Shown: one piece after another, positions 2,974 through 64,000 of the stretch
How positions within the stretch are numbered: position 1 is the stretch's first letter
How the letters are laid out: every line of letters starts with the position of its first letter
Assembly (NCBI GenBank): GCA_038040345.1
Contig: JBBPIQ010000002.1
Coordinates: 189,747-253,746, forward strand
DNA from: Chloroflexota bacterium
GTDB taxonomy: Bacteria; Chloroflexota; Limnocylindria; P2-11E
Direction: 5' to 3'
Length of the DNA: 64,000 nucleotides
Position numbers and translations under genes: made by a program
Notes under the pieces: generated by a model
The model's input: the letters and a program-made list of their open reading frames with translations, nothing else
What the model was told of the DNA's origin: nothing
Databases searched by the model: none

Positions 2974-4330
2974 CTAGAGAGGTCGCAATGCCCTCAGAAA
3001 CTCATCGGCGAAAGACGCGATAGGCCGAAGGAAGCCGTCCGGTTGTATTCCCCCAATCAACAGCGCCACGAAAATCACGCCGCCGATGATTCCCGCAATC
3101 GGCCGTGGCTCAAGTACCCAACGTTCGATACCGCTTCCGAAGAGGGCGAGCACGGCGCGGAGCTGGCCGACGATCAGAAGGAGCGTGGCGACCACGAGCG
3201 CCGCGCCAGTGAACGGAGCGAACTGGTAGGCGATGAGCTCCATGAAGAAGCGGCCCGGGAATCCGAGAAGCGGCGGCGCGCCGATCAGCGCGAAGCCACC
3301 GACGACGAACGCGAGTGCGGCGAGCGGCGCCTTCCGCGCGGTCGGGCGCTCGGGCGCGCTGCGGCGCTCGAGCGTGCCCGCAGCAAGGAGCTGACCTGAC
3401 GCGGATGCGCCGGTGACGATCACGCTCGCAAGCGCGCCGATGATGCCGGGGCCCGACAGTGTCGCGATGCCGACGAGCGCGGCGCCGAGATTCGAGATCA
3501 CCGAGTAGACGACGAGACGACGCAGATCCGGCGCGCCGCTCGCCAGGAACGCGCCGCCGATGGCCGAGGTCAGTCCGATGCCATGCAACAGGTCTTGCAC
3601 CTTCACGACCTGCACGATCGCGGGCAGCAGGCCGGAGAGCGTGAGGATCTCCACGAACGCGATGAACGTCGTCGGGACCAGGACGCCGAAATACAACGCG
3701 AGCGACGCCGGCGGTACCTCGCCCGCGAGGAGCGCCGCGTGCGTGTGGAACGGGATGGCTGCGAGGAGCAGCGCGAAGGCGACGACGAGCACCACAACGA
3801 GGAGCACGAACGTGTTCGCGGGCTGCTCGTGCGGAAGGCTGGCAGCGAGCGCAAGCGCGGCGATGCCAAGACATCCGCCTAGCGCGACGAAGCCGAAGTG
3901 GCGGGTCGCCGCCTCGACCGAGCGATTCCGATGCACCTGGAAGGTGAATGACCCGACCGGCACGAGAAGTCCGAGAACCAGGAGACCGAAGATGGCGAGT
4001 GGCGCGGTGAGGACGAGCACCCCGAGTGAGGTCGCGCCGACCGCGAGCGCCGTGGGGAAGAAGTTGTACGCGGGTTCGTCTAGCCACACGCCGAGCACGA
4101 GGAGGAAGAGGGTCGCGAGGATCACGCCCGACGCGAGACTGCCCAGTCCGGTCGCACGGAGCTCGAGGTCGAGAAGAGTGCCCGTGGTGTCGAGCGGAGT
4201 CAGGAGGACGAGCGCGAGGGCGACGACGATCGCGACGAGCGAGAAGGGACCGACGATGTTGAGCCGCTTCCGGAGCACGAACGCACCGCACGCCGCGACC
4301 GCGAGGACGAGTGGCGCCGCCGCGATGATC
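2974..4330 (-). CDS. divergent proton-antiporter-like membrane subunit (NuoN/MrpD, Proton_antipo_M-like)
   Basis: polytopic; IPFHTHAALLAGEVPPASLAL resembles the PFHxWLPDAxxGPTPVSAL motif, PDLRRLVVYSVISNLG resembles DLKRLLAYSSISHMG; Arg-rich N-terminal part of ORF 2974..4968 is probably not translated, start approximate. Confidence 0.4.
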
Positions 4331-56328: not shown

Positions 56329-56650
56329 GGTGTCTGCTGACCTCCTGCGCGTCTGCGGCGCTGAGCCGCGGCCCCAACATTACGGAGTCTGAGCCCCGCC
56401 TCGCACTTTAGTGGGTCGCCGTCCGCGAGGATGCGATGGGTGGCATGGGAGTCGCGATGCCGCTGGTAGCGGTCGCAGTCGCACCGCACCTTTCGCCTTA
56501 TCGTCCTGCACCACGCGTTAAGCAACGCTCTTCTCGCGAGGGCCCAAGCAGCCAACGCCCGTCGGCCTTGATGATGGGCATCAGAAATGGGCATCAGTTC
56601 TCCAACCCTGGTGTCCCAAGTCTGTTCAGGAGCCCCATCATTGTTGCCTC

Positions 56651-56737
56651 GGAGGGGTGGCAGAGCGGTCGAATGCGGCGGTCTTGAAAACCGCTACGTC
56701 CTTAGGGGCGTCGTGGGTTCGAATCCCACTCCCTCCG
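56651..56737 (+). tRNA. tRNA-Ser (anticodon UGA)
   Basis: acceptor GGAGGGG/TCCCTCC, anticodon stem GCGGT/ACCGC with loop CTTGAAA, long variable arm, T-loop GTGGGTTCGAATCCCAC, discriminator G; CCA not encoded. Confidence 0.8.
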
Positions 56738-56744
56738 CAGTGTG

Positions 56745-57020
56745 CAACTGACGATGTCAACTGACATCTGTGGTCTTGCTCTTTTTGGCGCAGCCGCTCG
56801 TACGGAGTCTGACCGCCCAGGGCGCCGAGGGGCCGGTCGAAAGTGTAGAAGTCCTCCCACTCTTGAAGTTTGGTCATGAACAGCTCGCTCTGGTCGACGA
56901 CGACGCCATTGAGCTCATCCCATCGCCGGGCATCCAGGAGCCTCTGTCGCCGGAGGGTTGAGGGAGCGAGGAGTTGGGCAGCACGTTCGCGTTGGCCTTG
57001 CCGCTCGCCGGATCGGACGG
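56745..57020 (-). mobile_element. DDE transposase/integrase C-terminal remnant
   Basis: minus-strand frame reads ...LQEWEDFYTFDRPLGALGGQTPYERL, resembling the rve-core YNxxRPHxxLGGxTP motif; no N-terminal catalytic region present. Confidence 0.4.
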
Positions 57021-57022
57021 GG

Positions 57023-57763
57023 TCAGTTCTTCTCGGCGTCGGAAGCGCTGACGAATCGGTAGCCGGCGCCCGGGACCGTCTCGATGTACCGGGGCTTGTG
57101 CCAGTCGTCCTGGAGCTTCGCCCGCAGCGCCCGCACGTGGCGGTCCACGACGTTGCTCTCGATCACGAAGTCGGTGCCCCAGAGCGCGTCGAGGATCTGC
57201 TCGCGCGTGAGGACGCTCCCGGCGTTGGCGGCGAGAAGGTACAGCAGTGCCTGCTCGAGCGAGGTGAGGTGCAGCTCGTGTTCGCCAGCGAGCACCTTTC
57301 GGTTGAGAACGTCGATCTCGAGGTCACCAATGCGCAGGCGCGGGACCAGCTCTACGGCGCTGCCGTGGGTCCGGCGGATCACCGCGTGGGCGCGGGCGAC
57401 CAGATCGTCCGGCACGAAGGGGATGCCGATGTAATCGTCCGCGCCGCGCTCGAAGGCGTCGAGCTTCCCGCGGAGGTCGCTGCGCCGGGTGAGGGCGATG
57501 ACCGCTGTCGACCCCTGGGCGCGCGCCTCGTTGATGAGCTGGATCCCCCGACCGGCCTCGATGTCTATGTTGACCAGAAGGAGATGGGGCTTCCACTCCA
57601 CGATCGCGCCCTTGGCCTGATTCACCGTTTCCGCGATCCGGCGGGCGTATCGCCCATGCCGCAGGGTGAGGTCGACGGTGTTCGCGAGCGCTTTGTCGCC
57701 GATGACCAAGAGCACGCGGACCGCGCGGTCGGATTCTCTTGCGGCCGGCTCGGCCTCTGCCAT
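57023..57763 (-). CDS. OmpR-family response regulator (orphan)
   Basis: receiver domain followed by winged helix (ETVPGAGYRFV); no histidine kinase gene adjacent. Confidence 0.75.
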   Translation of the reverse strand: MAEAEPAARESDRAVRVLLVIGDKALANTVDLTLRHGRYARRIAETVNQAKGAIVEWKPHLLLVNIDIEAGRGIQLINEARAQGSTAVIALTRRSDLRGKLDAFERGADDYIGIPFVPDDLVARAHAVIRRTHGSAVELVPRLRIGDLEIDVLNRKVLAGEHELHLTSLEQALLYLLAANAGSVLTREQILDALWGTDFVIESNVVDRHVRALRAKLQDDWHKPRYIETVPGAGYRFVSASDAEKN

Positions 57764-57772
57764 CGGCCCATT

Positions 57773-58342
57773 CTAGGCTTGGCTGTTCTCGTAAATACGC
57801 ACGCCGAGCTCGCGGCTCAGCGGAAGTGGCCAGCCGGAGGGACCGCGCCCAACCGATACCGGATCGTCATAGCTACCGAGGAGCACCAAGAGACCCGCGT
57901 GCGTCCCGACAGGCGCTCCGATCCAGACCAGACCTACCGCGTGGCTCGTCGTTCCGTCGCCGGCCGGCTCTTGGCTGAGGGTGACCGGAGGAGCGCCGCC
58001 GGTATTGATACCAGATTCGGTCACGGCGAGCCGGAAGTGCGAAGGCGGACTTTGCGAGCCCTCGGCGATCCTCGGCCCGTAGTGTTTCGGCACCGCCCAG
58101 CTCGAGACCAACGGTTCGAGAGCCGCGCGTTGTGCCGCGTCGGCCTCGGTCGACTCTCCCGCGTGGAGCGCTCTGAGCATCGCGACGTCGCGTCGGTCGT
58201 CGATGCTCGTCAATAGAGGTATGGCGGGTTCGATCCCGTGTGGCGACCCCGCCACGATTCGCGCGGCCGCGCCGTCCACATCTGCGACGCGCAGCCGGAA
58301 CTCTTCGAGCACGAGGACGCGGATGGGGTCAGCGATCGACAC
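57773..58342 (-). CDS. hypothetical protein upstream of the response regulator
   Basis: 189-aa ORF with normal composition, 10-nt gap to the regulator gene. Confidence 0.35.
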   Translation of the reverse strand: MSIADPIRVLVLEEFRLRVADVDGAAARIVAGSPHGIEPAIPLLTSIDDRRDVAMLRALHAGESTEADAAQRAALEPLVSSWAVPKHYGPRIAEGSQSPPSHFRLAVTESGINTGGAPPVTLSQEPAGDGTTSHAVGLVWIGAPVGTHAGLLVLLGSYDDPVSVGRGPSGWPLPLSRELGVRIYENSQA

Positions 58343-58463
58343 TGTCTTGAACCCTGACGCCTGGGGGTGTCCTTGTCATGACCTTGCCGTCATCTGCGCC
58401 GCATCTGCCGCATGACTGTTTGGTCATGACTCGAGCAAGCAACCAGCCCAAGATGCAGTCGAG

Positions 58464-59441
58464 GTGTCCGACATGAAGAACTCAAAGGCACTCGCTGCGA
58501 CGGTCGTCATCGCGCTCATCATTGCGATCGGCGCGATGGCAGGCACCGCTGCGAATGCGGCAACTTCCACTGTTCCCCTGGGAACGGCTGCCAGCTTCTC
58601 GGTCCTCGGCGGTCTGGCAGTGACCAACACAGGCCCGACCACCACCGACAAAGACGTAGGGGTTTGGCCCGGTACCTCGGTGGGCGCGTGGCCGCCCGGA
58701 ATAGCCGGCGGGGCAATCCACGCGGGTGACGCCGTCGCGCAGCAGGCCCAGAGCGACCTGACCACCGCGTATAACAACGCCGCAGGACGAACGCCGTTCA
58801 CGGTTGTGGGTGGCGATCTCGTCGGGCAGACCCTCGTTGGTGGCGTCTATAGAGGCGGCACGCTCGGTCTCACAGGAGTGCTGACCCTCGATGGGCAGAA
58901 CGATCCAGCGTCCGTCTGGATCTTCCAGACGCCGGCAACCCTCATCACCGGGTCGTCGAGTCTTGTGAGCTTCATCAACGGCGCGAGCCCGTGCAACGTC
59001 TTCTGGCAGGTCGGGAGCTCAGCGACTCTGGGAACGGGCTCCACCTTCGTCGGCACGATCATGGCTCTAACCAAGATCACGGTCACTACCGGCGTGACCG
59101 TCTATGGCAGAGCGCTGGCCCGGAATGATGCCGTGACATTGGACAACGACCGATTCCTAACGTCAGTGTGCGCATCTGCGCTAAACATTCCGCCGACGCG
59201 GCCACCGTTCACGGTTGCACCTTCGGCAACTCCGATAGCCGCGCCCACAGCGACCCCGATCGGTGCGGCCACTCCAACCGCAGCGCCGACAGTCGCTCCA
59301 ACCGCAGCGCCGACAGTTCATCTAACAGTCCTGCCATCAACGAGCACGGCGGAGTCGTGGGGTCCGCTCGCGCTGCTTGGCCTGGCCCTGGCCAGCTTCG
59401 GGGCGCTTCTGCTGCTTCGTAGACCACTTCGGAACTTCTAG
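58464..59441 (+). CDS. secreted DUF3494 (ice-binding-like) protein with Pro/Thr/Ala linker and C-terminal hydrophobic-basic tail
   Basis: signal peptide; LGTAASFSVLGGLAVTNTGPTT; PTAAPTVAPTAAPT linker; C-terminus LPSTSTAE + hydrophobic helix + RRPLRNF. Confidence 0.65.
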   Translation: MSDMKNSKALAATVVIALIIAIGAMAGTAANAATSTVPLGTAASFSVLGGLAVTNTGPTTTDKDVGVWPGTSVGAWPPGIAGGAIHAGDAVAQQAQSDLTTAYNNAAGRTPFTVVGGDLVGQTLVGGVYRGGTLGLTGVLTLDGQNDPASVWIFQTPATLITGSSSLVSFINGASPCNVFWQVGSSATLGTGSTFVGTIMALTKITVTTGVTVYGRALARNDAVTLDNDRFLTSVCASALNIPPTRPPFTVAPSATPIAAPTATPIGAATPTAAPTVAPTAAPTVHLTVLPSTSTAESWGPLALLGLALASFGALLLLRRPLRNF

Positions 59442-59763
59442 CGAGATCCTCGCGCAAGACCGCCAAGCCAGGTGAAGATCCAGCTCAGTGCACTTGGCTT
59501 GGCGGCGGCGTGTGCGAGCAACTTGTTCGCGGATTCTCAGCTCCCGGACGCAAGTCGATCCATTGTTCAGGATCCTTCTCATAGTTGCGCTCGTCGTCAT
59601 AGTTCCGCGTGTTGGTCGACGAGGCGATCCGCCTGCTACTACAGCAATTCCTGTAGCAGAGACGAGCGACGGCCGCGCACGATCGGGGACGACACCGGAC
59701 GGGCTGCGCGATTTTCTCGAATGAATCGACGTTAGCGGACGATCATGGACGGGCCGGGGCGCA

Positions 59764-59818
59764 CTTGAAAACCGCTGAGGGTGCAAGCTCTCCGTGGGTT
59801 CGAATCCCACCCCCTCCG
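59764..59818 (+). other. partial tRNA-Ser-like sequence (anticodon loop to 3' end), att-like
   Basis: CTTGAAAACCGCT ... GTGGGTTCGAATCCCAC CCCCTCC G shares anticodon loop, T-arm and acceptor 3' strand with tRNA-Ser but has a different variable arm and no D-arm. Confidence 0.5.
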
Positions 59819-59833
59819 CAGATCGTTAGGGAA

Positions 59834-61280: not shown

Positions 61281-62738
61281 ATGGCTGCACGGGCGGCACG
61301 AACGGCCAGAAGGCCGGAGGCGCCGGCGATTCTTGAGCGGTTATTCAAGCTTCGCGAGAACTCGACCACGGTAAGCACCGAGGTCATTGGCGGCATCACG
61401 ACGTTCTTCGTGATGGCCTACATCATCGCGTTGAACCCGATCATCCTGAACTATGTCGGGAACGCGGGCCTTCAGGACAAGAACCTCGGGCCCGGCTTCC
61501 CGCAAACGGTCGCGATGACCGCGCTCTGCGCCGGCGTCCTCACGATCGCGATGGGTCTTTACGCGAACAGGCCGTTCGCGATGGCCGCCGGCCTCGGTCT
61601 CAACGCGGTGGTCGCGTACCAGCTCGTTCTCGGCACTCCGCCGCTGCCGTGGCAGGCCGCCATGGGGATCATCCTCATGGAAGGCATCGTCATCACCGCG
61701 CTCGTCCTGAGCGGCCTGCGCGAGGCCATCCTCAATGCGATCCCGATGCAGCTCAAACAGGCGATCGGCGTGGGCATCGGCCTCTTCATTCTGCTGATTG
61801 GACTCGTGAATGCCGGTTTCGTGACCCGCGGCGTGGGCACAGTCGTCACGTTGTCGCCTCTTAACACAGGCCCAATCCTGACGTTCGTCATCGGTCTCAT
61901 CATCACGCTCGCGCTCTTCGCCCGCGGCGTGCGGGCGGCGCTACTGCTCGGCATCGTCGGGACGACGATCGTCGCGGGTCTCCTACACGCGGTCTTCTCG
62001 ACGTACGTGCCCTCGACGGCTCCAGGCACGGCGCAGCTTCCCACGTCATGGTTCGAATTCCCCAACTTCTCGAACGCGCTCAGCGGACTGAACTTCAGCG
62101 CGTTCGCGACCATCGGCGTCCTCGCGACGATCCTCGCGGTGTTCACGATCATGCTGTCGGACTTCTTCGACACGATGGGCACCGTCATCGGCATTGGCGG
62201 CCAAGCCGGGTGGCTCGACAGCAAGGGCCGGCTCCCTGGCATCCGCAAGATCCTTCTTGTCGACTCGGTCGGTGCGGCGTTCGGCGGCCTCATGGGCGCG
62301 TCGAGCAACACGACCTATATCGAGTCTGCCGCGGGCGTCTCGTCCGGCGCGCGGACGGGCCTCGCGAGCGTGGTCACCGGCATCCTGTTCCTCGCCGCGA
62401 TGTTCATCGCGCCGGTCGTGGCGGTCATCCCGCCTGAGGCGACCGCGCCCGCTCTGGTCATCGTCGGATTCCTCATGGCGGGCATCGCGTCGAAGATCGA
62501 CTTCACCGATCTCGAGCTGGGTCTCCCCGCCCTGCTCACGATCGTGATCATGCCGTTCACGTACTCGATCACGAACGGCATCGGCGCAGGGTTCATCACC
62601 TTCGTCTTCATCAAGCTCGCACGCGGCAAGGCGAACGAGGTCCATCCCCTCATGTGGGGCGTCGCGCTCGCCTTCCTCCTGTACTTCGCGCAAAACGTCT
62701 ACGCCAGCGCGTTCGGCGTGGGTGGGTACCGCGAGTAG
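61281..62738 (+). CDS. NCS2 family nucleobase permease (AzgA-like purine permease)
   Basis: GGITTFFVMAYIIALNP...; about 13 TM helices; true start may be slightly downstream. Confidence 0.8.
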   Translation: MAARAARTARRPEAPAILERLFKLRENSTTVSTEVIGGITTFFVMAYIIALNPIILNYVGNAGLQDKNLGPGFPQTVAMTALCAGVLTIAMGLYANRPFAMAAGLGLNAVVAYQLVLGTPPLPWQAAMGIILMEGIVITALVLSGLREAILNAIPMQLKQAIGVGIGLFILLIGLVNAGFVTRGVGTVVTLSPLNTGPILTFVIGLIITLALFARGVRAALLLGIVGTTIVAGLLHAVFSTYVPSTAPGTAQLPTSWFEFPNFSNALSGLNFSAFATIGVLATILAVFTIMLSDFFDTMGTVIGIGGQAGWLDSKGRLPGIRKILLVDSVGAAFGGLMGASSNTTYIESAAGVSSGARTGLASVVTGILFLAAMFIAPVVAVIPPEATAPALVIVGFLMAGIASKIDFTDLELGLPALLTIVIMPFTYSITNGIGAGFITFVFIKLARGKANEVHPLMWGVALAFLLYFAQNVYASAFGVGGYRE

Positions 62739-62804
62739 CGTTCGGTCCGGCACCTAAAGGAGAGGCCCTGCCGCGCTGGCAGGGCCTCTTTCTATGCTGA
62801 ACAC

Positions 62805-63575
62805 GTGGAGCCACGAGCAGCGGTCCGCGAAGCGCTCGAGCGCGGTGAGCGCGCGGCCCTCGTCACGGTGACGGCGCTCGAGGGAAGTCCGCCGTCGCGC
62901 GAAGGCATGGCGCTCGGCGTGCTCGAAAGCGGCGAACGGTTCGGCAGCCTGGGGTGCGACGGATTCGACGAGTCCGGCGAGCACGACGCGACGCGCGCGT
63001 TGCGCGAACGCGTTCGACTCGAGCGCACGTACGACTGGGACGATGCGTCGCGCATCCGCGTCGAGGTCCGTCCATTCGTGCCGGGCGAAACGGTCCCTGG
63101 ATCGACCGCGCGGCCCGAGCTGATCGTTATCGGAACAGGTCCGGTCGCGCGCGCGCTCGCGACCATCGGGAAGGTCCTCGGGTTCACGATCCGCGCGGTC
63201 TCCGTCGGTGCATCCGATGCGCCGGAGCCTGATGAGCGCATCGTCGTTCGTGACGCGACCGAGCTCACCAGGCTGCGCCTCGGACCGGAGACCTATGTCG
63301 TCATCGCCGGGCACGACCGCGAGTTCTCGCAGGCGGCATTGCGCATCCTTCTCCTTTCGGAGGCGCCGTATCTCGGGATGATGGGCAGCCGCCGGCACAC
63401 CGGCGGTCTTCTCGACGAGCTACGTGCCGCGGGAATCTCTGATCGATCGCTCGCGCGCGTGCACACGCCGGTCGGTCTTGACCTTGGAGCGCAGACGCCG
63501 GAAGAGATCGCGCTCGCTGCGATCGCGCACATCGTCGCCACACGTAGGGGGAGGAGCGGGTCGCCTCTCGCCTGA
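62805..63575 (+). CDS. XdhC/CoxI family molybdo-enzyme maturation protein
   Basis: GTG start; LVTVTALEGSPPSREG... and Rossmann-like LIVIGTGPVARALA. Confidence 0.7.
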   Translation: MEPRAAVREALERGERAALVTVTALEGSPPSREGMALGVLESGERFGSLGCDGFDESGEHDATRALRERVRLERTYDWDDASRIRVEVRPFVPGETVPGSTARPELIVIGTGPVARALATIGKVLGFTIRAVSVGASDAPEPDERIVVRDATELTRLRLGPETYVVIAGHDREFSQAALRILLLSEAPYLGMMGSRRHTGGLLDELRAAGISDRSLARVHTPVGLDLGAQTPEEIALAAIAHIVATRRGRSGSPLA

Positions 63576-63619
63576 CCGGGCCGGCACGGGTAGACTCGCT
63601 CTGGGTTTGGTGACCTCAC

Positions 63620-63712
63620 GGGGAGGTCGCATAGTTGGCCTAGTGCGCGGGTTTGCTAAACCCGTAAGGATGCCGTAAGGCGCCTTCGAGGGTTCGAATC
63701 CCTCCCTCCCCG
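63620..63712 (+). tRNA. tRNA-Ser (anticodon GCU)
   Basis: acceptor GGGGAGG/CCTCCCC, anticodon stem CGGGT/ACCCG with loop TTGCTAA, long variable arm, T-loop GAGGGTTCGAATCCCTC. Confidence 0.8.
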
Positions 63713-63725
63713 CAGTTGTGATGTC

Positions 63726-64000
63726 TCAGGACATCGAGGACACCTGTCTCACGACATTGTGGACAGGTGTCCGCGCGCCGAAATAGCGGCGGCTCGGATC
63801 GAGGGTGAGCTCGCGTAGCAGCTGACCGTCGTCGCGGACGATCCGGACGTTCGCGCCGGCGATGAGCAGACGGATCCGCTCACCCTTGTGCGCGCGTCCG
63901 ACGTAGATGTGCCGCAGCTGGCTCAGGTAGCGCAGCGTGACTCGACCGCAGCTATCCACCTTGTCATGGCGGACCCGGAAGTCGGTGACCGTCTCCGGCA
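63726..64000 (-). mobile_element. transposase/integrase gene, C-terminal part (continues beyond window)
   Basis: stop 13 nt downstream of the tRNA-Ser(GCU) 3' end on the opposite strand; C-terminus ...GERIRLLIAGANVRIVRDDGQLLRELTLDPSRRY; family assignment tentative. Confidence 0.45.

Follow-up and report, generated by a model that had tools for sequence, protein, structure and literature searches.

The window analysed here is a 64,000-nucleotide stretch of DNA from a Chloroflexota bacterium (GenBank assembly GCA_038040345.1, contig JBBPIQ010000002.1, positions 189,747 to 253,746), in which the palindrome GATGTC-N4-GACATC follows two tRNA-Ser genes, at sites referred to as locus 1 and locus 2. 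We conclude that the palindromes are very probably parts of the right terminal inverted repeats of two DDE-transposase elements of the IS481 insertion sequence (IS) family, inserted at tRNA 3' ends. Locus 1 contains the remnant of a canonical ~1.0-kb IS481 element (family 1), and locus 2 contains the right end of an IS481-family element of ~1.27 kb, the transposase of which is extended at its C-terminus (family 2). The features in the window are ordinary IS ends; their interest lies in the target rule that they revealed. Related loci retrieved from databases are cited by locus number (L001 and so on). The features on which the argument depends are as follows.

56651-56738, plus strand (ARAGORN): tRNA-Ser(UGA), intact; Rfam RF00005 at 57.4 bits, with model positions 1-71 ending at discriminator G56737
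56738-56740, plus strand: native tRNA-Ser(UGA) trailer CAG, the 3 nt between discriminator and locus-1 tip
56741-56914, minus strand: locus-1 IS481 remnant (family 1, right end), ~175 bp, the left ~830 bp apparently deleted
56753-56768, no strand: palindrome 1, GATGTC-AACT-GACATC (GATGTCAACTGACATC), positions 13-28 of the family-1 right inverted repeat
56773-56913, minus strand: transposase pseudogene fragment LNGVVVDQSELFMTKLQEWEDFYTFDRPLGALGGQTPYERLRQKEQD, the last ~47 residues, end of the rve_3 region
59760-59821, plus strand: partial tRNA-Ser(UGA) copy, ~60 nt from the anticodon loop to the 3' end plus CAG, with an unrelated trailer after it
63620-63713, plus strand (ARAGORN): tRNA-Ser(GCU), intact; Rfam RF00005 at 55.1 bits, ending at discriminator G63712
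63713-63716, plus strand: spacer CAGT after tRNA-Ser(GCU), the 4 nt between discriminator and locus-2 tip
63717-64000, minus strand: locus-2 element right end (family 2), of the ~1.27-kb element type, cut by the window end
63720-63735, no strand: palindrome 2, GATGTC-TCAG-GACATC (GATGTCTCAGGACATC), positions 4-19 of the family-2 right inverted repeat
63726-63998, minus strand: family-2 transposase C-terminus ...VHNVVRQVSSMS*, the last 90 codons plus stop
63738-63772, no strand: 11-bp inverted repeat GGACACCTGTC ... GACAGGTGTCC inside the right inverted repeat, a strongly self-complementary region
63743-63758, no strand: second ~16-bp repeat unit of locus 2, palindrome 2 being the first

ARAGORN found two tRNA genes in the 64 kb, both tRNA-Ser, and both palindromes lie less than 30 nt from them. 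When at most one mismatch was allowed, GATGTC-N4-GACATC matched twice in the window against 0.16 matches expected, and two matches were reached in 2 of 100 shuffles. The original prediction had placed the palindrome directly after the tRNA; the palindromes are real, but they are offset from the ARAGORN end by 15 nt at locus 1 and by 7 nt at locus 2. Both tRNA genes of the window are occupied by IS481-type ends.

The locus-1 tip, TGTGCAACTGAC..., begins at 56741 (TGTGC), 3 nt past discriminator G56737, and its sequence GTGTGCAACTGACG is common to the right ends of canonical ~1.0-kb IS481 elements elsewhere. The minus-strand protein fragment matched the last 36 positions (249-284) of the NCBIfam IS481 transposase profile NF033577 (E 2.3e-4). 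Annotated IS481 transposases on actinobacterial plasmids also matched it, one on a Pseudonocardia plasmid with 68% identity, and amino acid identity to the full-length relative L194 was 70% over 47 residues. A Pfam search of the two short window fragments gave nothing useful. At the nucleotide level, blastn aligned window positions 56740-56914 with L119, L205, L194 and L184 at 74-79% identity. The expectation that a minus-strand DDE transposase end of 40-85 residues follows the palindrome was borne out in that an IS481 C-terminus is present, but locus 1 keeps only ~47-55 of its residues. Nor does the remnant extend to 57020 as originally proposed: DNA homology to full elements ends at ~56914, and 56915-57020 is not transposase. 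There is no in-frame stop in the locus-1 transposase frame before the tRNA.

The partial tRNA-Ser(UGA) copy at 59760-59821 was used as an unoccupied comparison site for locus 1. It shares ...CCGCAG with the tRNA-Ser(UGA) locus, similarity stops exactly at 56740/56741, and the copy then continues into its native trailer, CAG/ATCGTTAGGG, without a palindrome. As similarity ends at the element tip, this comparison indicates that the locus-1 remnant is a genuine tRNA-end insertion, the left ~830 bp of which would have been lost later; locus 1 would thus be a decayed copy of a second IS481 lineage. The nearest protein matches to fragment 1 (L086-L089) belong to remnants associated with CTAG instead of with a tRNA. 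Two plasmid relatives without a nearby tRNA (L001 and L002) had prompted the view that the position of locus 1 was a coincidence, which was overturned by the family-1 metagenome scan described below.

At locus 2 the tip, TGTGATGTCTCAGGACATCG..., starts at 63717, 4 nt past the discriminator, which gives the junction G-CAGT-TGT, and the transposase stop codon (TCA on the plus strand, 63726-63728) is inside the palindrome loop. The arrangement noticed at tRNA-Ser(UGA), i.e. a palindrome and then a minus-strand IS481-family C-terminus, does recur here as originally predicted. However, locus 2 is not visibly a remnant, its C-terminus consisting of 90 uninterrupted codons cut by the window end. The best of the retrieved loci was L006, from a Chloroflexota metagenome-assembled genome (MAG), in which a complete element of 1271 bp (L006 3006-4276) occupies the orthologous XdhC/tRNA-Ser(GCU) locus. 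Locus 2 and the L006 element share 89% nucleotide and 92% amino acid identity, and the flank is 90% identical at the nucleotide level (L006 4270-5004 versus window 62500-63760). The L006 transposase (395 aa; open reading frame (ORF) 3080-4267) has ~100 extra C-terminal residues beyond its HTH, rve and rve_3 domains. Fragment 2 of the window lies beyond the NF033577 profile, and its 92% identity is to this C-terminus of L006. The non-coding DNA of L006 amounts to 74 nt plus 9 nt, all of it inverted repeat. From this comparison, locus 2 is probably an intact tRNA-end insertion with its left end past the window. If so, a left end resembling TGTGTGAGTTCACC... should be found ~990 bp beyond position 64000, followed by a copy of CCTCCCTCCCCGCAG(T). 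The L006 junction reads CAG/TGT where that of the window reads CAGT/TGT, a one-base difference; the shared site could reflect either an old common insertion with an indel or independent hits at the same site. The resemblance of the two loci also points to a Limnocylindria-like Chloroflexota genome as the origin of the window.

Almost all database homologues of the 90-residue locus-2 fragment were short, in line with a repeat at which assemblies break. Short-read contigs carrying the neighbouring XdhC gene break inside the locus-2 element end: two short-read assemblies with the XdhC gene of the window (L004 and L005), apparently from one and the same organism as the window, end ~170 nt past XdhC, which suggests that the element is multicopy in that genome.

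The targets of family 2 were surveyed in 80 loci, one genome per species, that were collected with a conserved-peptide pattern blind to flanking DNA. The loci come from Chloroflexota and many Actinomycetota, and the terminus ...GATGTC-N4-GACATCACA is conserved in most of them. Seventy right ends had at least 40 nt of flanking DNA, and these flanks were classified as follows.

48 of 70: ARAGORN tRNA 0-5 nt from the tip
10 of 70: tRNA-like 3' end with the T-loop at the same offset, without an ARAGORN call
7 of 70: tandem array, with the left end of a further element behind a 15-16-nt tRNA-end copy
5 of 70: other

Thus tRNA 3' ends or tRNA-like 3' fragments adjoin 58 of the 70 family-2 right ends, or 65 (93%) when tandem arrays are included. 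One of the ten flanks that ARAGORN did not call is a tmRNA; the others checked had no Rfam tRNA match. The T-loop core was 18-19 nt from the tip in 55 of the 58 flanks, and orientation was constant, the transposase C-terminus always pointing toward the intact tRNA. When the tRNA gene encodes CCA the tip follows CCA directly; otherwise 3-4 arbitrary bases intervene. The targets cover 13 amino-acid isotypes and 22 identified anticodons. In an Acidimicrobiaceae MAG (L031 4289-4641) a family-2 element is located at the CCA end of a tmRNA gene (Rfam RF00023, 149.6 bits), indicating that the target class includes tmRNA. The proposal of a tRNA-Ser-targeting element family was therefore right about DDE-transposase element ends with a real, non-chance preference for tRNA-adjacent targets, but the preference is not for tRNA-Ser, since relatives occur at 13 isotypes and one tmRNA. 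Nor is this a single family in the narrow sense: the transposases of the two lineages are ~27-35% identical when full-length relatives are compared, and element size and orientation behaviour differ.

The same counts bear on the possibility that insertion is random and that copies survive only where they do no harm, as in tRNA trailers. An element immediately outside a tRNA gene would probably be tolerated, but mere survival does not account for the nucleotide-precise position (the T-loop offset of 18-19 nt in 55 of 58 flanks), for the constant orientation of family 2, or for 93% of ends falling at tRNA-type sites or tandem arrays, which are a tiny fraction of neutral intergenic DNA. Moreover, 100%-identical copies were all at tRNAs. 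We consider an absence of targeting to be scarcely credible.

Target duplications were found for 34 of 37 putative full-length family-2 elements. They are 15 bp (23 elements) or 16 bp (11 elements) long, 32 of the 34 are perfect, and in each of the 34 cases the duplicated sequence is the 3' end of the adjacent tRNA. The elements are mostly 1268-1384 bp in size, while two of the 34 are 2.0-2.5 kb. Within single genomes, 100%-identical copies were found at different tRNAs (Ser/Gln, Ser/Tyr/Ser and Ser/Lys), each with its own matching duplication. As identical copies have repeats that match the local tRNA, these are true target duplications from recent transposition rather than att-site homology. 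This result also bears on whether the two sites could be attL/attR junctions of a tyrosine-recombinase island that brings its own tRNA 3' end, in which case the palindrome would be the core site of the integrase. Transfer RNA 3' ends are the classic integrase target, and the ~60-nt partial tRNA-Ser(UGA) copy 3.07 kb downstream may mark an older integrase-type event. However, the elements are 1.0-1.4 kb, encode a single DDE transposase and no integrase, and end in TGT-type inverted repeats, and the different 15-16-bp repeats on identical copies imply that the repeats were made at insertion and not carried by the element. An integrase island is consequently a very improbable explanation.

Several family-2 loci depart from the simple case of one element at one tRNA gene. 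On an Arthrobacter plasmid (NZ_CP012477.1; L003 1458-2803) an element with the 15-bp duplication TGGTGCCCCGGGCGG is inserted at the 3' fragment of a tRNA, which was not called as a full tRNA by ARAGORN or by Rfam. A rare non-tRNA target (L037 1822-3107) has the 15-bp duplication CTGATAAGGAGCGAT beside GAATCGGACC, a near-match to the T-loop at the usual offset, and would fit a read-out of the T-loop. Tandem arrays at one tRNA, with 15-16-nt tRNA-end copies between the elements, were observed in L038, L039, L041, L045, L046, L048, L050, L064, L066 and L073. A mixed array in L127 (around 4230-4246) consists of a family-2 right end, a 15-nt copy of a tRNA-Arg end and a family-1 end. In L009 (~3006-4275) the left flank is a duplication of a tRNA-Ser(GCU) end and the right flank is tRNA-Leu(UAG), and L007 (~3019) has a left flank with a tRNA-Leu(CAA)-type duplication. 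The flanks of these two loci suggest recombination between element copies at different tRNA loci, i.e. IS-mediated rearrangement.

Family 1 was sampled by a metagenome scan with the tip sequence, covering at least 120 loci; among the matches listed, 26 were genuine element ends, with a transposase C-terminus inside, and 94 were chance matches. All family-1 counts below refer to these listed matches. The genuine right ends form clades with different flanks. Several sister clades adjoin CTAG, the classic IS481 target; an NCTAGN target has been reported for ISLxc2 (PMC2516522). The locus-1 remnant clusters with the clade of L119, L205 and L194 (71-78% nucleotide identity), the members of which adjoin tRNA 3' ends or orphan copies of them, and a second tRNA-end clade contains L184, L203, L109, L127 and L159. 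L205 and L194, of 1003-1004 bp, come from two metagenomes and occupy the same tRNA-Tyr locus in opposite orientations, each with a 15-bp tRNA-end duplication. In general, family-1 relatives are 1002-1007 bp long and their tRNA-end insertions occur in either orientation. In the tRNA-targeting family-1 clade (L194 and L205) the element itself contains no stop codon for the transposase ORF, which extends across the right tip, and in the CTAG-associated relative L086 (1697-1876) the stop is supplied by the TAG of the target site (...CAC AGC TAG).

The position of the palindrome within the elements indicates what it is. Each family-2 end contains two ~16-bp units of the type GATGTC-N4-GACATC with GnnGACA behind, at a spacing of ~23 bp. 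The first of them covers positions 4-19 of the right end. In the tip unit of the left end the left arm is degenerate, and a complete unit is often found at positions 27-42, away from any tRNA. The palindrome accompanies the family-2 element at all tRNA types. It belongs to the terminal inverted repeat of the element itself and is neither a target signal nor an att site behind the tRNA. A two-unit layout is typical of transposase-binding sites, and GATGTC-N4-GACATC would accordingly be a unit of putative transposase-binding sites in the element ends rather than a signal of the tRNA gene.

Both copies in the window are just downstream of tRNA-Ser genes, as would also be the case if the palindrome were a native terminator or processing signal of these genes and the transposase fragments were unrelated debris. 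That explanation conflicts with the partial tRNA-Ser(UGA) copy, which keeps its native trailer and has no palindrome, and with the occurrence of the motif beside 13 isotypes, always within an IS481 terminus, and in left ends. In addition, the motif has no T-run and only two copies are present in 64 kb. No terminator-like site with a T-run was found in 56500-57100 or 63500-64000, and no Rfam family covered the palindromes, only the two tRNAs reaching the gathering score. We give a native signal very little credence. The original prediction was to be abandoned if the fragments resembled no transposase and the palindrome were a generic terminator; IS481 similarity is present and the palindrome is not a generic terminator.

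A more substantial alternative is that the palindrome acts mainly at the RNA level, such that a hairpin at the tip stops or processes read-through tRNA transcripts, the element having replaced the native trailer. This would safeguard the maturation of the tRNA and keep antisense transcription out of the convergent transposase gene, and it could coexist with a role in the terminal inverted repeat. In family 2, with its constant orientation, the perfect palindrome is at the element tip directed toward the tRNA 3' end. Among the family-1 right ends, a perfect six-pair palindrome, from position 13 or 14 on, was present in 8 of 12 that are tRNA-associated (with the window copy and L148 counted) and in none of 15 at CTAG or elsewhere, and CTAG-targeting sister elements have no palindrome at the homologous position. 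This association is striking, but it comes from about two clades, so that the counts are not independent events. Compared with GGTGTC-N4-GACACC in its nearest relatives, the GATGTC/GACATC of the locus-1 remnant is altered in both arms in such a way that symmetry and pairing are maintained. Folding of the locus-2 end gave z = -5.3 and -6.4 relative to shuffles, which is unusually structured, but the locus-1 hairpin did not fold better than shuffled sequence (z = -0.8). The stem is limited to 6 pairs and lacks a U-tract. The unit is also inside left ends, far from the tRNA, and family 1 inserts both ways, often with the palindrome away from the tRNA (L194, L109 and L127). Among 39 unique family-2 right tips, 7 had perfect pairing, 16 had 5 of 6 pairs and 16 had 3-4 of 6 pairs; with so many imperfect tips, strict symmetry is not required. 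Compensatory evolution was not seen across these tips, most arm changes being one-sided. We therefore consider a predominantly RNA-level role to be unlikely and favor the interpretation of the palindrome as part of the element's terminal inverted repeat.

Our proposed mechanism draws on the insertions seen in the relatives. There, insertion places the tip 3-4 nt past the discriminator, just beyond the CCA site of the mature tRNA, and the staggered cuts duplicate the last 15-16 nt, approximately tRNA positions 61/62-76. In the relatives the tRNA gene therefore remains intact next to one end of the element, and a short orphan copy of the gene's 3' end adjoins the other. Because the tRNA is left intact, repeated insertion and tandem arrays are possible. 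The target would be chosen by the transposase itself, reading the T-arm GGTTCGAATCC at a fixed distance together with the acceptor 3' strand. We infer read-out by the transposase because the elements are too compact for an accessory protein or a guide-RNA gene and because tRNA 3' fragments are also hit; the T-arm and acceptor 3' strand are the likely determinant because they are the only sequence common to all targets, including tRNA fragments and tmRNA. A guide-RNA gene inside the element was ruled out for want of space (L006 has one ORF and 74 + 9 nt of non-coding DNA). Transposition would be of the copy-out/paste-in type, which has been proposed for the related IS3 family. A T-arm rebuilt at the left junction was not seen in the junction sequences, which were read by eye with no dedicated computation.

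Residues 8-65 of the locus-2 fragment are predicted to form a six-stranded beta-barrel (AlphaFold mean predicted local distance difference test score 79, and >87 over the barrel blocks). In the PDB this barrel matched the transposases IstA and TnsB best, weakly by E value (0.12-1.3) although with a probability of up to 0.99, and presumably it corresponds to the barrel that follows the catalytic core in Mu-type transposases. The barrel is not the sole targeting determinant, since family 1 lacks it and still targets tRNAs.

Taken together, the two families lead us to propose, tentatively and at slightly less than even odds, that single-protein IS481 transposases gained a nucleotide-precise specificity for the 3' ends of tRNA and tmRNA genes in general that regenerates the gene, in at least two lineages with ~27-35% identical transposases, both with G[AG]TGTC-N4-GACA[CT]C near the right tip, and that this mode is undescribed for bacterial insertion sequences. 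It is much less likely that the palindromic tip or the host tRNA takes part in target capture; if true, such a role would explain why CTAG-targeting sisters differ mainly in this part of the end.

Several observations weigh against these interpretations. Neither copy in the window shows a left end or a duplication, so that transposition is deduced from the relatives. Binding of a protein to the palindrome or T-arm, and recognition of the target by the transposase itself, are likewise suggested by sequence. The exact rule was broken by 5 of 70 family-2 right ends and by the family-1 relative L184, the tip of which is 8 nt past the discriminator. The family-1 evidence comes from a scan of at least 120 loci in which only 26 of the matches listed were genuine element ends. 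Finally, arm changes in the family-2 palindrome are mostly one-sided and uncompensated, as judged from 39 unique right tips collected in a motif-biased search.

The neighbouring features of the two loci are listed below.

57023-57763, minus strand: OmpR-type response regulator gene, next to the locus-1 remnant
57773-58342, minus strand: ORF between the locus-1 remnant and the partial tRNA copy
58464-59441: 325-aa ORF, read as secreted from its sequence
62805-63575: XdhC gene, neighbour of tRNA-Ser(GCU) and locus 2

Integrase-type islands leave such a pattern, here a partial tRNA-Ser(UGA) copy 3.07 kb past the intact gene, and no integrase gene was found in the stretch 56739-59759. This stretch may be a decayed integrated islet with the partial tRNA copy as its far boundary.

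If the targeting rule holds, bacteria would have, in compact form, an equivalent of the 'safe harbour' use of tRNA genes known from eukaryotic retrotransposons and from Dada. One DDE protein of ~315-395 aa would insert at a fixed nucleotide after any tRNA and leave the gene undamaged, which raises the question of how the tRNA gene is read and offers a possible small site-directed insertion tool. For annotation, the short tRNA-end repeats make the elements mimic integrase att sites. They also break short-read assemblies at tRNA genes and supply repeats for rearrangement between tRNA loci, as in L009.

Profile scores, end type and size place the elements in the IS481 family, from the described members of which they depart in target and duplication length. 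L006 (family 2) scored 239.8 bits and L194 (family 1) 276.4 bits against NF033577, both above the IS481 equivalog cut-off of 224 bits, and both full-length transposases contain HTH_32, rve and rve_3 domains. Both window tips read TGTG..., in keeping with the TGT-type terminal inverted repeats of the family. IS481 elements are ~0.95-1.3 kb in size and generate target duplications of 4-15 bp; family 2 is slightly above this size range. The IS1202 group/ISNCY comprises rve transposases with 15-17-bp duplications, and L006 (82 bits) and L194 (37.5 bits) fell far below the cut-off of 250 for the ISNCY_2 profile NF033594, placing neither in that group. A search of full-text literature found no published report of tRNA targeting by IS481 elements; curated IS databases and the main IS reviews were outside this search, so prior curation is possible.

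Classic IS481 elements (IS481, IS1002 and ISLxc2) share with those described here a single DDE (rve) transposase with an N-terminal HTH, TGT ends and a size of ~1 kb. They differ in producing 6-bp duplications at NCTAGN, whereas the present elements produce 15-16-bp duplications at tRNA or tmRNA 3' ends, and family 2 adds the ~100-aa C-terminal beta-barrel and measures 1.27-1.38 kb. IS1397, ISKpn1 and IS30-type elements offer another parallel, in that IS3/IS481/IS30-type transposases choose a repeated, structured and harmless target. IS1397 and ISKpn1 insert in repetitive extragenic palindromic (REP) sequences and IS30-type elements in palindromic hot spots, so that the class of target differs.

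Tyrosine-integrase islands and prophages use the same address, the 3' end of a tRNA or tmRNA gene, and they too leave an intact tRNA, have a short flanking repeat and accrete in tandem. Their repeat arises by recombination with an element-borne attP copy and each integrase is specific for one tRNA, whereas here DDE transposition would make the duplication at the target and one element serves all tRNAs. The single DDE ORF without an integrase, and the repeats of identical copies that match the local tRNA, set the present elements apart from that class. Tn7-like and type V-K CRISPR-associated transposons also have an rve-type DDE transposase, insert just downstream of tRNA genes and, like family 2, do so in a fixed orientation. 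They rely on TnsB, TnsC and TniQ, with or without Cas12k and a guide RNA, and extend over many kb, in contrast to one protein in 1.0-1.4 kb here; the elements do not belong with them, and the family-2 barrel resembles TnsB and IstA only weakly (E 0.12-1.3).

The general view of retrotransposons that target tRNA genes is that the RNA polymerase III machinery tethers them and that they insert some tens of bases away from the gene. Such elements in eukaryotes include TRE and DGLT-A of Dictyostelium and yeast Ty3 (PMC5006619, PMC5911963), and Dada elements are DNA transposons with an insertion specificity tied to small-RNA genes (PMC3706591). TRE, DGLT-A, Ty3 and Dada resemble the present elements in strategy, as they find safe insertion sites at such multicopy genes, tRNA genes in particular. 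A given Dada family recognizes a single RNA gene and inserts within it, whereas the IS481-family elements described here insert at one fixed nucleotide after any tRNA.

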